A DNA stretch of 64,000 bases from an uncultured Actinomycetota bacterium (GCA_963771835.1 CAVYVA010000001.1:113047-177046), one strand, 5' to 3'. Counted from the first letter of the stretch, positions 12,391 to 23,807 are shown. The notes: generated from the letters alone by a model not told the origin. A program made the numbers and translations.

Positions 12391-13950
12391 TCACAGCCAC
12401 GCGCGTGAGCGGTAGGCGCGGTCCGGGCCGGTCACCCGTTCGGCGGCCAGCCGGCCGCTGAGCAGCACCATCGGGACACCGACCCCGGGGGTGGTCCCGG
12501 ACCCGGCGAAGACCACGTTCTCGCCCCACAGGTTCCGCGGCCGGAACGGCCCGGTCTGGGCCGAAGCGTGTGCGCGGCCGCGAACGGGGCGCCGCGCTCC
12601 ATCCCGCGGGCCTGCCAGTCCAGCGGCGTCGTGACCTGCTCGACCTCGATCGCCGGCGCCGAAGCCGGCGTAGCCGCGCTGCTCGAGCGTGCGCACCACC
12701 TCGTCGCGGTAGCGCGGCGCCCAGCGTGCGCCAGTCGAGGTCCGCGTCGAGGTTCGGCGTCGGGCACGAGCACGTAGTAGACCTGCCGCCCGTCCGGCGC
12801 GAGGGTCGGGTCGGCGCGGGTCGGGTTGGTCACCAGCAGCGACGGGTCGGACATCAGCCGGCCCTCGTGCGATGACCTCGTCGAAGACCCGTCGCCAGGC
12901 GGCGCCGAAGTGGATGTTGTGGTGCGCGCGTCCGGCCGTACGTGGCCGTGGACCCGGCGAGCAGCAGGAAGCAGGACGGCGAGTAGCGCAGCCGGCGCAC
13001 CGACCACGGCTCGCGGCCCAGCAGGTCGCGGTAGGCGACGGGCAGGTCCGGGTTGAGCACGACGGCGTCGCAGCCGATCCGCTCGCCGTCGGTGGTGTGC
13101 ACCGCGCGTCGCCCGTCGCCCGGACGTCTCGACCGCGTTCGACGGTGCAGCCGTACCGGACGTCGACGCCGTGCTTCTCCGCCGCGCCGGCCAGCGCGCG
13201 CGGGCACCGCGTGCATGCCGCCGCGCGGGAAGTACACGCCGGCGACCGAGTCCATGTAGGCGATGACGGCGTAGAGCGCGAGCGCGTCGTACGGCGACAG
13301 CCCCGCGTACATCGACTGGAACGAGAAGACCCGCTGCGTGCGCGGGTCGTGCAGGTACCGGCCCGACCGTCGGGCGCCAGCCGGCGGAAGCCGCCGACGC
13401 GCCGCGAGCCGGGCGAGGTGCGGGCGTGAGCAGCCCGAGCGGGGAGTCGACGTTGCGGTCGATGAAGTGCGCGCATCTCGCAGGCGGTACAGCGTGCGAG
13501 ACGAAGTCGACGTACCGCCGGTAGCCGGCGGCCTCGGCGCGCGCCGCACACGCGCGCGACCTCGGCGGCCATCGCGTCGACGTCGGCGTGCACGTCGAGC
13601 GTCGAGCCGTCGGGGAAGAACGCGCGGTAGGCCGGCTGCACCGGCTGCAGGTCCAGCCAGTCGTCGAGCTCCTCGCCGACGCAGGCCAGCGCGTCGGCGA
13701 TGAGGTCCGGCATGGTCAGCACCGTCGGGCCGGTGTCGAACCGGTAGCCGCCGAGCTCGAGCAGCCCGGCGCGCCCGCCGGGCACCGGCTCGCGCTCGAG
13801 CACGGTCACCCGCCGGCCGGCGCCGGCCAGCCGCAGGGCGGCGGACAGCCCGGCGAGCCCGGCGCCGACGACGACGACGTGGTCGGTGGGGCCGGTGACG
13901 GTCCGCACGGGTCGCGGCGTCAGACCGTGCGCACGGTGGCCGCGTGCGCG
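12391..13950 (-). CDS. crtI: phytoene desaturase (CrtI), reading frame broken several times
   Basis: N-terminal FAD fold [38 protein letters not shown], mid-section ([53 protein letters not shown]) and C-terminus ([29 protein letters not shown]) are each recognisable but lie in three different frames (ORFs 12391..15093, 12854..13549, 12432..13007). Confidence 0.8.
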
Positions 13951-15010
13951 AGCTCGGCCAGCGCCCACGCGCCCGGCTCGGCCACCAGCCCGGGACCGGC
14001 CTGCTCCAGCGCGTCCAGCGCCTGCTCGGTCGAGCCGGCGATCAGCGTCCTCGACCCGCGCGAGCGCCCCGCTGGCCGCGATGACCGTGCGCAGCGTCGT
14101 CGACGCCGGCCGCGTCCAGGTCCGGGTCGCCGAGGCGGCGGCGCAGCAGCTGCGGCGCCGGCCGGCGCCGCCTCCGCCAGCGCGAAGGCGACCAGCACGC
14201 GTGCGCTTGCCCTCGCGCAGGTCGTCGCCGGCCGGCTTGCCGGTCTCCGCCGGGTCGCCGAACACGCCGAGCACGTCGTCGCGCAGCTGGAACGCCTCGC
14301 CCAGCGGCAGGCCGTACGCGCTGTACGCCGTGAGCAGTCCGGCGCGGCGCCGCCGGCCAGCGCGGCGCCCAGCTGCAGCGGGCGCTCGACGGTGTACTTC
14401 GCGCTCTTGTAGCGCAGCACCCGCATGGCGCCGCTCGACCGAGCCCGCCGCCGCGTCGCCTGCTCGAGCAGGTCGAGGTACTGCCCGGCCATGAGCTCGG
14501 TGCGCATCACGTCGAAGACCGGCTTGGCCGATCGCAGCGCCGCGTCCGCCAGCCCCGAGCCGTACAGCAGCTCGTCGGCCCAGGACAGGCACAGGTCGCC
14601 GAGCAGGATCGCCGCCGCCGGTCCCGAACGCATCCGCCGGTCCCGAGCCAGCCGGCCGACCGGTGCAGCTGCGGCGAACCGGCGGTGCGCGGCCGGCCGG
14701 CCGCGCCGGGTGTCCGAGCCGTCCATGACGTCGTCGTGGATCAGCGCGCAGGCCTGCAGCAGCTCGAGCGAGGCCGCGGCCCGCGACGATCTGCGTCGCC
14801 GTCCGGCGCCGCCGGCGCCGCGCCAGCCCCAGTAGCAGAACGCCGGCCGCAGCCGCTTGCCGCCGGCCAGCAGCCCGGCGAGGATCTCGACGAAGGGGTC
14901 CAGCGCGGGGGCGACGTCGCCGCAGCCTCGCGGCCTGGCTGGCCACGAACTCGTCGAGGGCCGTCTGCACGCGCGCGCCGAGGTCCTCGGCGTCCAGCGG
15001 GGAGGTCGTC
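13920..15010 (-). CDS. idsA: geranylgeranyl diphosphate synthase (polyprenyl synthetase; IdsA/CrtE), reading frame broken
   Basis: Polyprenyl synthetase motifs distributed over two frames: [17 protein letters not shown] (first Asp-rich region), [53 protein letters not shown] (second DDxxD); the conserved C-terminus closes the ORF. Confidence 0.75.
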
Positions 15011-15074
15011 ACGTCGTCGAGACTACGGCCACGGCCGCGTCCCGGCAGGTCGGGAACGCGGCCGGACCCGACAC

Positions 15075-22208: not shown

Positions 22209-23006
22209 TCAGTCGCGTCCGACCCACAGCGCCCACGCGTACGGCACCGCGACGACTCCCATGGCGATCCCGCCGTACAGGGCCACCCACGGCCGGTGGA
22301 AGAAGAAGGCGTTCGCGAGCACCGAGGACAGGTACGTCCAGAAGAACAGCAGCGCGGGCTGCCCGTCCGGGGCCGGCCGGTGCGGCAGCCGGTCCAGCAC
22401 CGCCATCATCACCACCGCCGTCACCAGCCACCCGAGGTAGTTGACCCCCGGGATGCCCGGCACGTGCGGGAGGGCGTACGCGGTGCTCGTGAAGTGCCAG
22501 AACCCCTCGGCCGTCATCATCGGGTCCAGGAACAGGTCCCAGCCGGCGAGGGCCAGTCCGCCCAGGAGCGGGACGAGCAGCGCGGACCGGCTCAGCCGCC
22601 GGGCCAGCACCAGGGACGGGTAGGCGACCATCGCCCACGCCAGCGGCACCAGCCACGGGACGCCGAGCACCGTCCGGGTCAACGTTCCCGAGTAGACGTA
22701 GTCGCCGAACGGGAGCCCGGTCCGCAGTCCCACCGCCTCGACCAGCAGCCCGCCGCCGACCGTCACCACGCAGAAGCCGGTCGTCCAGGCGAGGCCGCGC
22801 CACACCAGCGCGTGCGACGTGCTGGCGACGAAGAAGGTCACGACGATCGCGACGGTGAGGTCGCGCCGGGCCGTGCCGTGCGCGAGCGGGTAGCAGATCT
22901 GCAGGCCGATCGTCACGGCGGCGAGCAGCCACGGCAGTGCGAGCAGCAGCGGGCTGCGGCCCCGCCGACGGTCGGTGCGCGGACCGGTGTAGACGCGCAG
23001 GCTCAT
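22209..23006 (-). CDS. carotenoid biosynthesis membrane protein (DUF422/CruF-like, putative carotenoid 1',2'-hydratase)
   Basis: 265-aa polytopic membrane protein; resembles DUF422 proteins found next to carotenoid glycosyltransferases; intact frame. Confidence 0.55.
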   Translation of the reverse strand: MSLRVYTGPRTDRRRGRSPLLLALPWLLAAVTIGLQICYPLAHGTARRDLTVAIVVTFFVASTSHALVWRGLAWTTGFCVVTVGGGLLVEAVGLRTGLPFGDYVYSGTLTRTVLGVPWLVPLAWAMVAYPSLVLARRLSRSALLVPLLGGLALAGWDLFLDPMMTAEGFWHFTSTAYALPHVPGIPGVNYLGWLVTAVVMMAVLDRLPHRPAPDGQPALLFFWTYLSSVLANAFFFHRPWVALYGGIAMGVVAVPYAWALWVGRD

Positions 23007-23078
23007 GGGACCGGCGCTGCGATGGGCAGGGCGGCCCGCACTGGCGTCCGGCGGGGCTGGTCGGGCACGGGCGTCAGC

Positions 23079-23807
23079 CTAGGTGACGCCCGCGACCTCG
23101 ATGCCGCCGAAGGAGCCCTGCGCCTCGAGCACGGCCAGGCGGGCGAAGAGCTCTTCGCCGTACCAGCCGACGCTGGCCGTCCGCCGGATGGCCTCCAGGT
23201 GCTCGGGCGACTCGTACGCGAACGAGCGCAGGGCCGCGGGGGAGTCCCACAGCGAGAACGTGCCCTGCAGCCCGACCGGTGCCTCGCCGATCCCCAGGGC
23301 GAGCCGCAGGCCGGGCGACCCGGCCAGGCGTGCGCTCACCGGCGGCACGGCGCGCCAGAACGTGACCGCCCGGCCCGGGCGCAGTCTGGCCCTGGTCACC
23401 GCGGCGACGGGTCCCTCGTACGGCTGCGGCTGCGGGTCGCCGAACGGGGCGCGGCCGGACCAGCGGCCCTTGCTGGCCAGCGGGCGCATCAGCAGCCGCA
23501 GGCGTTCGCCGCCCCGGGCCGCGTCCGCGCGCGCGTCCCACCCGCGTGCGACCGGCGAGCGCTCGAACGCTTCGACCGCCCGCGGGTCCGACCAGCAGGC
23601 CAGCAGCGCCCAGTGCCGCGGGTCCGCGTCGCGGACGGTGAACGTGCGGCCGTCCCCGGTGCCGAGCAGCTTGAAGAAGGTGAGGTTCGCGGACCTGCTG
23701 ACGGCGCGCCGTCCGAACGCCATCGCGGTCACCGCCGACGGCACCGTGCGCGCCGGGACCCCCCACACGTGCAGCGTCACCAGCTCGGGGACGAGGTCGA
23801 CGGTCAC
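23079..23807 (-). CDS. CrtA-like (spheroidene-monooxygenase family) protein
   Basis: 242-aa soluble protein (MTVDLVPELVTLHVWGVPARTVPSAVTAMAF...FFKLLGTGDGRTF...) resembling actinobacterial proteins annotated as spheroidene monooxygenase; adjacent to carotenoid genes. Family assignment from memory, not verified. Confidence 0.4.
   Translation of the reverse strand: MTVDLVPELVTLHVWGVPARTVPSAVTAMAFGRRAVSRSANLTFFKLLGTGDGRTFTVRDADPRHWALLACWSDPRAVEAFERSPVARGWDARADAARGGERLRLLMRPLASKGRWSGRAPFGDPQPQPYEGPVAAVTRARLRPGRAVTFWRAVPPVSARLAGSPGLRLALGIGEAPVGLQGTFSLWDSPAALRSFAYESPEHLEAIRRTASVGWYGEELFARLAVLEAQGSFGGIEVAGVT

Follow-up and report, generated by a model that had tools for sequence, protein, structure and literature searches.

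The DNA analysed here, a stretch of 64,000 nucleotides from an uncultured Actinomycetota bacterium (GCA_963771835.1, CAVYVA010000001.1:113047-177046; hereafter the window), carries a dispersed set of putative carotenoid genes, for which an earlier reading (the original prediction) had proposed a glycosylated, hydroxylated and possibly ketolated product. The locus raises two questions: which carotenoid would these genes make, and what is to be made of the broken reading frames in which several of them are written? The GC content of the window (~75%) points to an actinobacterial origin, and our analysis suggests that the DNA probably comes from an uncultured soil actinomycete with a complete gene set of the deoxymyxol-glycoside type, the frameshifts in it being non-biological consensus errors. 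Judged from the enzyme families encoded, the predicted product is a monocyclic, 1'-O-glycosylated, 2'-hydroxylated, 3',4'-didehydro C40 carotenoid of the phleixanthophyll/sioxanthin type.

Coding phase and relatives of the window

At ~75% GC, wrong frames open for hundreds of codons and lists of open reading frames (ORFs) were unusable for the window; genes were instead called from the periodicity of third-position GC (GC3) together with a codon log-odds score. Most genes displayed a single clean coding phase. The exceptions were two stretches, at ~12.4-16.0 kb and ~20.3-22.1 kb, which coincide with the places where crtI, idsA, a second desaturase and a family 2 glycosyltransferase (GT2) had been located in the original prediction.

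A scan of a genome collection, anchored on the antiporter gene of the window, yielded four syntenic loci (L001-L004): L003, from an 'MFD' soil metagenome-assembled genome (MAG), shares ~95% nucleotide identity with the window over positions 7154-28249, L001 shares ~83%, and L002 and L004 are more distant. Also compared were L081, on a 3.85 Mb ENA contig and ~93% identical to the window, and L084, a JGI metagenome contig assembled independently from a close relative, for which gene calls were used in place of the noisy nucleotide comparison (82-87% identity). Because wrong frames are open at 75% GC, frameshifts in the window were not resolved by tblastn with proteins of L003 as queries, and nucleotide projection was used, in which the window was projected onto L003 coordinates and the extra bases were deleted to give corrected genes. 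Families were assigned with Pfam and NCBIfam/TIGRFAM profiles, using the corrected proteins of the window and their intact L003 orthologues.

Carotenoid core genes

Profile matches recovered every family named in the original prediction at about the position given for it, but not every gene is an ORF: the CruF-family, CrtA-like, crtB, crtYc and crtYd genes are intact, whereas crtI, idsA, the CrtD-like gene and the GT2 gene are frame-broken. The pathway is therefore not encodable as written, with four of the six genes listed (five when metF is included) interrupted, a feature that had been overlooked.

The heterodimeric lycopene cyclase is encoded by two intact plus-strand genes, crtYc (7105-7467; TIGR03462, 74 bits against a cutoff of 39.4; PF18916) and crtYd (7464-7820; TIGR03462, 57 bits; PF18916), the product of the latter being 95% identical in amino acid sequence to that of L003. 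Phytoene synthase is encoded by the intact minus-strand gene crtB (9192-10124), which matches PF00494 at 234 bits and has CrtB as its best NCBIfam match. The phytoene desaturase gene crtI (12391-13908, minus strand) carries 19 extra bases and one missing base relative to L003. As written (12394-13908, minus strand), it scored 198 bits against TIGR02734 (cutoff 238.1) over the N-terminal ~114 residues only, and yielded no single, full-length ORF above the cutoff; with the 19 inserted bases removed, it scored 516 bits and covered positions 1-493 of the 504 in the model. The N-terminal GxGxxG fold that binds flavin adenine dinucleotide is visible in the sequence, and the L003 orthologue matches PF13450 and PF01593. 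Judged from these matches, the family identity of crtI is certain, which cannot be said of the integrity of its copy in the window.

The idsA/crtE-type polyprenyl diphosphate synthase gene (13920-15012, minus strand; 18 extra and two missing bases) is frame-broken as well. Its L003 orthologue matches PF00348 at 171 bits; the best NCBIfam match, at 350 bits and below cutoff, is a mycobacterial GFPPS/IdsA2-like model, and the product is closest to the mycobacterial Rv2173-type enzyme. The housekeeping gene metF, encoding methylenetetrahydrofolate reductase (MTHFR; 15139-16042, plus strand), is interrupted by seven extra bases, and its L003 orthologue scored 333 bits against TIGR00676, above the cutoff of 293.7.

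End-group genes

The second desaturase gene (19547-21061, minus strand), encoding a CrtD-type carotenoid 3',4'-desaturase, carries four extra bases and one missing base, and the interval 19550-21061 contains three in-frame stops when read in a single frame. The best match of its product is NF045637 CrtD (337-345 bits, cutoff 580); it scored 218-222 bits against NF042421 CrtD (cutoff 500), 293-300 bits against the crtI_fam model TIGR02734 (above the cutoff of 238) and 60-62 bits against the CrtO ketolase model NF045689 (cutoff 1000), this last over the C-terminal ~140 residues only. Since CrtD is the best-scoring specific family and the crtI_fam subfamily cutoff is exceeded, with the equivalog cutoffs lying above the scores, we file the protein as CrtD-like, short of equivalog. 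Of the earlier label 'CrtD/CrtO-like', the first half thus stands and the second falls, and a CrtO-type ketolase was rejected.

The candidate carotenoid glycosyltransferase gene (21058-22227, minus strand; PF00535, PF13641) is interrupted by three extra bases, and its start probably lies near 22200-22227 rather than at 22110, where it had been placed. The top NCBIfam matches of the corrected GT2 are CruG, a myxol 2'-O-glycosyltransferase (107 bits, cutoff 600), and the hopanoid-associated HpnB (105 bits), and exopolysaccharide and cell-wall models (PgaC, EpsD and similar) reached at most 40 bits. The best curated matches are thus not the cell-wall or dolichol-type transferases that had been named as the outcome that would speak against a carotenoid role. 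The GT2 gene adjoins a PF04240 gene in L081-L086, L001, L003 and L006.

The PF04240 (DUF422) gene of the window (22209-23006, minus strand) is intact and encodes a CruF-family membrane protein, a candidate carotenoid 1',2'-hydratase. The DUF422 assignment proved sound, with 106 bits against a gathering cutoff of 25 over profile positions 5-186 of 209, and the protein lies below the equivalog cutoffs of TIGR03460 (116 bits, cutoff 154.7) and of the cyanobacterial CruF model NF045693 (45 bits, cutoff 400); from the family we infer a 1',2'-hydratase activity.

The fourth gene (23079-23807, minus strand), also intact, encodes a haem monooxygenase that resembles CrtA and is a candidate for the 2'-hydroxylation of carotenoids, as in the CrtA-OH type. 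Its product matches the spheroidene monooxygenase model NF045923 at 164 bits (E 4e-48, positions 19-225 of 226), below the cutoff of 300; by this match it is clearly homologous to CrtA over its full length and short of equivalog, so that the predicted CrtA membership holds as homology and not at the equivalog level. In CrtA, a haem enzyme, His194 serves as the axial ligand, and T128 and T173 lie near the substrate (PMC13488962). Taking as reference the C. sphaeroides residues H194 (axial haem ligand), R214 (propionate-binding) and T128 and T173 (substrate-proximal), we found H203, R223, T138 and T183 of the CrtA-like protein to be invariant in 121 sequences (the window protein and 120 homologues); these residues were matched by spacing, without direct alignment (45/20/20 in the CrtA-like protein versus 45/21/20 in the reference). 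In public sources, the actinomycete crtA-like gene is mostly labelled 'hypothetical' or 'monooxygenase'.

Predicted pathway and product

In the predicted pathway, IdsA would supply geranylgeranyl diphosphate, CrtB would form phytoene, CrtI would form lycopene, and CrtYc/Yd would close one ring to give gamma-carotene. At the open end, the CruF-family protein would hydrate the 1',2' bond, the CrtD-type desaturase would add a 3',4' double bond, the CrtA-like haem monooxygenase would hydroxylate C-2', and the membrane GT2 would transfer a sugar onto the 1'- or 2'-OH; a single minus-strand unit, (ybaK-)crtA-cruF-GT2-crtD, holds the genes for these last four steps. This functional reading draws on direct experimental precedent, in which Nonlabens/Flavobacterium genes introduced stepwise in E. 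coli gave gamma-carotene with CrtY, 1',2'-hydration with CruF, 1'-hydroxytorulene with CrtD and deoxymyxol with CrtA-OH (PMC11855829). A deoxymyxol glycoside is predicted because a GT2 is present and none of crtZ, crtU, crtO and crtW appears among the genes annotated in the 64-kb window. The words 'glycosylated' and 'hydroxylated' of the original prediction are supported to this extent, as a prediction from the GT2, CruF-like and CrtA-like families.

Several points weigh against this assignment of the product. Because the CruF, CrtD, CrtA and CruG assignments all fall below their equivalog cutoffs, the specific activities are read from family, context and precedent. In addition, the rest of the genome could hold crtU, crtZ or crtO, with further modification of the other end of the molecule, and the sugar, the regiochemistry of glycosylation and the number of rings are not fixed by these genes.

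An alternative is that the CrtA-like enzyme works as a 2'-ketolase, like its counterpart in purple bacteria, or that the second desaturase is itself a ketolase, such that genes intact in vivo would make a glycosylated keto-carotenoid. Among curated models, the CrtA-like protein does match the Rhodobacter-type spheroidene monooxygenase best, ketolation by CrtA is repeated hydroxylation at one active site (PMC13488962), and 4-ketophleixanthophyll occurs in M. phlei (PMC5884252). However, the CrtA score lies far below the equivalog cutoff, the second desaturase scored 337 bits with CrtD and 60 bits with CrtO, crtO and crtW were not found in the window, and the characterised homologue from a CruF and CrtD context in non-phototrophs is a 2'-hydroxylase (PMC11855829; likewise PMC13488962 for Bacteroidota). 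Characterised CrtA homologues outside purple bacteria are 2'-hydroxylases (PMC11855829, PMC13488962), which, with the low CrtO score, leaves the suggested ketolation without footing. Because of the cruF and crtD context, the non-phototrophic setting and the analogy with the flavobacterial pathway (PMC11855829), the evidence favours a 2'-hydroxy rather than a keto product, and we consider a ketolase unlikely.

Comparison with known systems

The predicted deoxymyxol-glycoside pathway resembles the flavobacterial myxol pathway of Nonlabens spongiae and Flavobacterium P99-3 (crtY, cruF, crtD and crtA-OH, plus crtZ) in that, by homology, a CruF-type hydratase, a CrtD and a CrtA-related 2'-hydroxylase follow a lycopene monocyclase. 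Unlike the flavobacterial system, the window has a heterodimeric CrtYc/Yd cyclase, a GT2 within the module, for which a glycoside is predicted, and no visible crtZ, for which deoxymyxol rather than myxol is predicted; moreover, its genes lie in sub-clusters among housekeeping genes, whereas the flavobacterial genes form a single cluster.

Sioxanthin, compared here by description, likewise comes from an actinomycete pathway with non-clustered genes and the same predicted open-end chemistry; the predicted window product is its beta-ring analogue. In the 2015 account by Richter et al., the sioxanthin genes of Salinispora/Micromonosporaceae are reportedly dispersed over several loci (four distant regions), whereas the sub-clusters of the window lie within ~17 kb. 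The open end of sioxanthin has the structure 1'-glucosyloxy-3',4'-didehydro-1',2'-dihydro-...-2'-ol (PMC6025630); its other end is an aryl phi ring that needs the desaturase/methyltransferase CrtU, and no crtU was seen among the annotated window genes.

Phleixanthophyll-type glucosides, known from Mycobacterium (M. phlei) and Nocardia, are like the predicted window product in being deoxymyxol glycosides and in having actinobacterial producers (PMC5884252). Phleixanthophyll is known chemically, and no gene-level assignment was found for it in the literature surveyed; unlike for the phleixanthophyll esters, no esterifying acyltransferase was seen in the window. The pairing of a PF04240 CruF with a membrane GT2 recalls the CruF/CruG/CruC systems of cyanobacteria and green sulfur bacteria, which make myxoxanthophyll and OH-chlorobactene glucoside and are not known to include a CrtA-type hydroxylase. 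Because the scores lie far below the equivalog cutoffs (CruG, 107 versus 600 bits; cyanobacterial CruF, 45 versus 400 bits), the CruF and GT2 of the window are distant relatives, not orthologues, of cyanobacterial CruF and CruG.

Single-base insertions in two patches

In crtI, idsA, metF, the CrtD-like gene and the GT2 gene, the GC3 phase hops repeatedly, and the family motifs are spread over all three frames of the correct strand; the same genes are single-phase in L003 and L001. Between the window and L003, the density of substitutions is uniform. Indels, in contrast, are concentrated, with 46 in 12563-15846 and ~9 in 20296-22031, and in both patches practically all of them are single extra bases in the window, with almost no deletions. 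Correction against L003 left no in-frame stop in any of the five genes and gave amino acid identities of 94.8% for crtI (19 extra bases removed; ratio of nonsynonymous to synonymous substitution rates, dN/dS, 0.22), 94.7% for idsA (18; 0.16), 94.0% for metF (7; 0.23), 96.8% for crtD (4; 0.17) and 92.8% for the GT2 gene (3; 0.29). These dN/dS values are indistinguishable from those of intact neighbours such as crtB (0.23) and cruF (0.26). Among 50 window-specific insertions, 45 consisted of one G or one C. In 33 of the 47 cases in which one base was added, no homopolymer was extended, and the insertion sites were ~3-fold enriched in GCGC, CGCG and TGCG contexts. Examples of the affected positions are 12563, 12928, 13107, 13471, 14198, 14449, 14809, 15296, 20296, 21032 and 22031.

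Broken frames are not confined to the window or to pigment genes. L081 has patches of its own, with the MTHFR gene called as a 57-amino-acid stub and the DNA polymerase III alpha gene in three pieces, and its crtD and GT2 genes are intact. The latter polymerase gene is broken by insertion-rich patches in L081 (window-equivalent 26.5-30.5 kb) and in L003 (18.6-20.2 kb), and the window copy is intact. Within the window, a PASTA Ser/Thr kinase gene of the PknB/PknL type (4649-6636, minus strand), upstream of the pigment genes, is split over three frames, with the kinase domain in 5851-6636, the juxtamembrane and transmembrane segments and first PASTA repeat in ~5330-5850, and the other PASTA repeats in 4649-5329; this pattern implies at least two further frameshifts in a housekeeping gene. 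Patchy frameshifts thus seem to be a general property of these long-read assemblies. In L084, every gene is intact and the layout is that of the window.

A four-way alignment of the window, L081, L003 and L001 over 13.1-16.1 kb assigned 19 insertions to the window alone, 31 to L081 alone, 11 to both and none to L003 alone. In the same interval, the window-private changes comprised 19 indels and 39 substitutions, the L081-private changes 31 and 89, those shared by the window and L081 11 and 29, those private to L003 0 and 52, and those private to L001 ~1 and 284. The informative sites describe a near-star tree, with 38 sites grouping the window with L003, 29 grouping it with L081 and 27 supporting the third grouping. 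An argument that the shared insertions conflict with the phylogeny was dropped in view of these counts.

Natural gene decay is biased towards deletions, and indels are far rarer in it than substitutions. The lesions of the window do not look like natural decay, because they are insertions only, occur at 0.35-0.5 per substitution and are accompanied by no relaxation of protein constraint. On the strength of the indel-to-substitution ratios, the insertion-only bias, the sequence context, the dN/dS values and the involvement of housekeeping genes, we read the frame breaks as very probably recurrent, context-specific errors of long-read consensus and not as pseudogenes; most likely, the crtI, idsA, metF, crtD and GT2 genes of the organism are intact. 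The nearest relatives of the window belong to the MFD-LR catalogue, whose MAGs are Nanopore-only, Flye-assembled and polished in one Medaka round, Nanopore-associated errors having been screened by the authors (PMC12313526). By analogy with these relatives, from which the sequencing technology of the window is deduced, a Nanopore-only consensus is the most likely source of the errors.

Some observations weigh against this explanation. The long-read origin of the window rests on its relatives and not on its own record or reads; the patches match gene runs rather neatly (crtI-idsA-metF and crtD-GT2); and 11 insertions occupy identical sites in the window and L081, some of which, given the near-star substitution phylogeny, could conceivably be shared by descent. 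The last two of these points also speak for real frameshifts, by which the lineage would have inactivated crtI, idsA, metF, crtD and the GT2 gene and become pigment-less, with cruF, crtA, crtB and crtY as remnants: the breaks sit in two gene runs holding four carotenoid genes, and L081 is broken in crtI-idsA-metF as well. However, the lesions are context-specific insertions of a single G or C, at an indel-to-substitution ratio far above what natural decay would be expected to leave; substitutions are not in excess, nonsense codons are absent after correction, and dN/dS is not raised. Breaks also affect a PASTA kinase and a genuine MTHFR, L081 is broken in DNA polymerase III alpha and yet intact in crtD and the GT2 gene, and the substitutions within the patch do not pair the window with L081 (29 sites versus 38 for the window with L003). 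An inactivated pathway is accordingly quite improbable. Programmed frameshifting was rejected as implausible, since a single gene holds 19 breaks and genes unrelated to one another are affected.

As for the origin of the consensus errors, insertion sites that recur in two independent assemblies might mark a DNA modification or signal context that misleads the consensus of GC-rich long reads, which, taken jointly with the carotenoid-envelope coupling described below, we regard as a long shot.

A coding-phase switch (~31236-31641) was also observed in a TgpA-like transglutaminase gene (30991-33552, minus strand), whose product has 853 amino acids compared with 790 in L084 and which shows many indels relative to L081; the switch may mark a further patch of errors or, alternatively, real variability of the region.

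Gene organisation and conservation

The carotenoid genes are spread over ~16.7 kb and interleaved with housekeeping genes, much as the original prediction had described (~16 kb), their partners being a conserved Rv2172c-Rv2176-like block (metF, idsA, mptA, the Rv2175c-like regulator and the kinase). Strand and spacing imply four or more transcription units, of which one, Rv2175c-like-crtYc-crtYd-ECF sigma-anti-sigma, reads from the plus strand. Three read from the minus strand: crtB; idsA-crtI-mptA, which diverges from metF; and ybaK-crtA-cruF-GT2-crtD, which has gaps of 4 bp and 72 bp as well as overlaps at its junctions. A scan for sigma-70 promoters returned no promoter-like site, and a scan for intrinsic terminators returned a few hits, all inside genes and at about chance level; both scans are uninformative in GC-rich DNA.

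The whole layout is kept in L001, L003-L006, L010, L081 and L084. The minus-strand crtA-cruF-GT2-crtD run, which had been taken for part of a carotenoid cluster, is confirmed as a carotenoid module by its recurrence in L001, L003, L006 and L081-L086; the four genes are found, with variable internal order, in Motilibacter aurantiacus and several other actinomycete lineages, usually between a ybaK/DUF6504-HEPN-DNA polymerase cassette and the metF/CDP-alcohol transferase block.

This setting bears on two further proposals. One is that pigment and envelope are coupled: idsA-crtI show conserved co-orientation with the MptA-family GT-C gene, and crtA-cruF-GT2-crtD with the CDP-alcohol phosphatidyltransferase gene, as might be seen if a carotenoid glycoside were incorporated into, or anchored on, a mannolipid/phosphoinositide envelope, for example after extension by the GT-C enzyme; the gene arrangement would then be more than inherited synteny. 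The other is that a different isoprenoid lipid, or an envelope glycolipid, is the substrate of the GT2 and perhaps of the CruF-like and CrtA-like proteins too, their adjacency to crtD being incidental synteny. The GT2 does score about equally with the hopanoid-associated HpnB, the region is rich in envelope genes (the MptA-family and CDP-alcohol phosphatidyltransferase genes), and the GT2, CruF-like and CrtA-like proteins fall short of their equivalog cutoffs; yet PF04240 is a carotenoid-specific family, and the four genes co-occur, in varying order and with changing flanks, in distant actinomycetes (Motilibacter and several MAG lineages), which makes a non-carotenoid role very improbable. A hopanoid glycosyltransferase role for the GT2 was rejected, and no hopanoid gene (hpn/shc) was found in the window.

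Neighbouring genes

The crtY genes are flanked by regulators. An intact gene for an Rv2175c-type regulator (6724-7101, plus strand; profile match) precedes crtYc, and the genes for an extracytoplasmic function (ECF) sigma factor (7870-8397, plus strand; NF007227, 219 bits, cutoff 202) and an anti-sigma factor (8394-9062, plus strand; weak match to NF052375) lie between crtYd and crtB, an arrangement kept in L001 and L003. The pair may be a light- or stress-responsive regulator of the pigment genes, and we presume that it may be comparable to CarQ/CarR-like or LitS-like regulators.

Downstream of crtI on the same strand is an intact gene for an MptA/MptB-family GT-C mannosyltransferase (10651-12330, minus strand), whose product scored 209 bits against MptB (NF038066, cutoff 40) and 204 bits against MptA (TIGR03459, below the cutoff of 439). 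Between it and crtB lies a barstar-family (barnase inhibitor) gene (10222-10635, plus strand) with no barnase partner visible; it is also present in L001, and the alignment of the window with L003 is indel-rich there (11 gaps in the 10500 bin). Intact, unrelated housekeeping genes for a CDP-alcohol phosphatidyltransferase (16044-16745, plus strand) and a K+/H+ antiporter (16764-18257, plus strand), both with profile matches, follow metF; the gene at 18388-19212 encodes a PKD-domain protein and is not metF.

The gene for a YbaK-type aminoacyl-tRNA editing protein (23812-24285, minus strand; PF04073, 94 bits) lies upstream of crtA in the same orientation, separated from it by 4 bp, an adjacency kept in L081 and L084; it is probably co-transcribed with crtA and unrelated to pigment chemistry. 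Divergent from this operon, a plus-strand cassette (24638-30641) encodes DUF6504, SAV_6107-like HEPN, DnaE2-like and Y-family (IMS) polymerase proteins, the DnaE2-like protein being a 1,297-amino-acid polymerase of the DNA polymerase III alpha type. The cassette looks like a variant of the ImuA'/ImuB/DnaE2-type mutasome, and the DUF6504-HEPN-polymerase trio also adjoins the carotenoid module in distant actinomycetes (L082-L086).

At the far end of the window (~52600-64000), the GC fraction falls from ~0.75 to 0.66-0.68 just after ftsZ. Codon periodicity is unclear in the hidden Markov model over 52633-57119, and the genes beyond 57119 (an APH-like phosphotransferase, an alpha/beta hydrolase, a PEP-mutase-family protein and an adenylate cyclase) seem to have no connection with the dcw cluster. 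This segment could be a genomic island, a region of different codon regime or a mis-join.

Implications

For users of this sequence, the main caution is that ~50 single-base insertion errors interrupt five genes, in patches at 12.56-15.85 kb and 20.30-22.03 kb, and pipelines that call ORFs, pseudogenes or biosynthetic clusters on the window would under-call the carotenoid pathway or misreport its decay. The chemistry (myxol, phleixanthophyll and sioxanthin), the enzyme families and the non-clustered architecture in actinomycetes are already established. What is new is modest: an uncultured clade of soil actinomycetes joins the predicted makers of glycosylated monocyclic carotenoids of the phleixanthophyll/sioxanthin type, and the crtA-like gene of actinomycetes is part of a conserved module for carotenoid end groups that is widespread in these bacteria, an unsurprising association that is useful for annotation.

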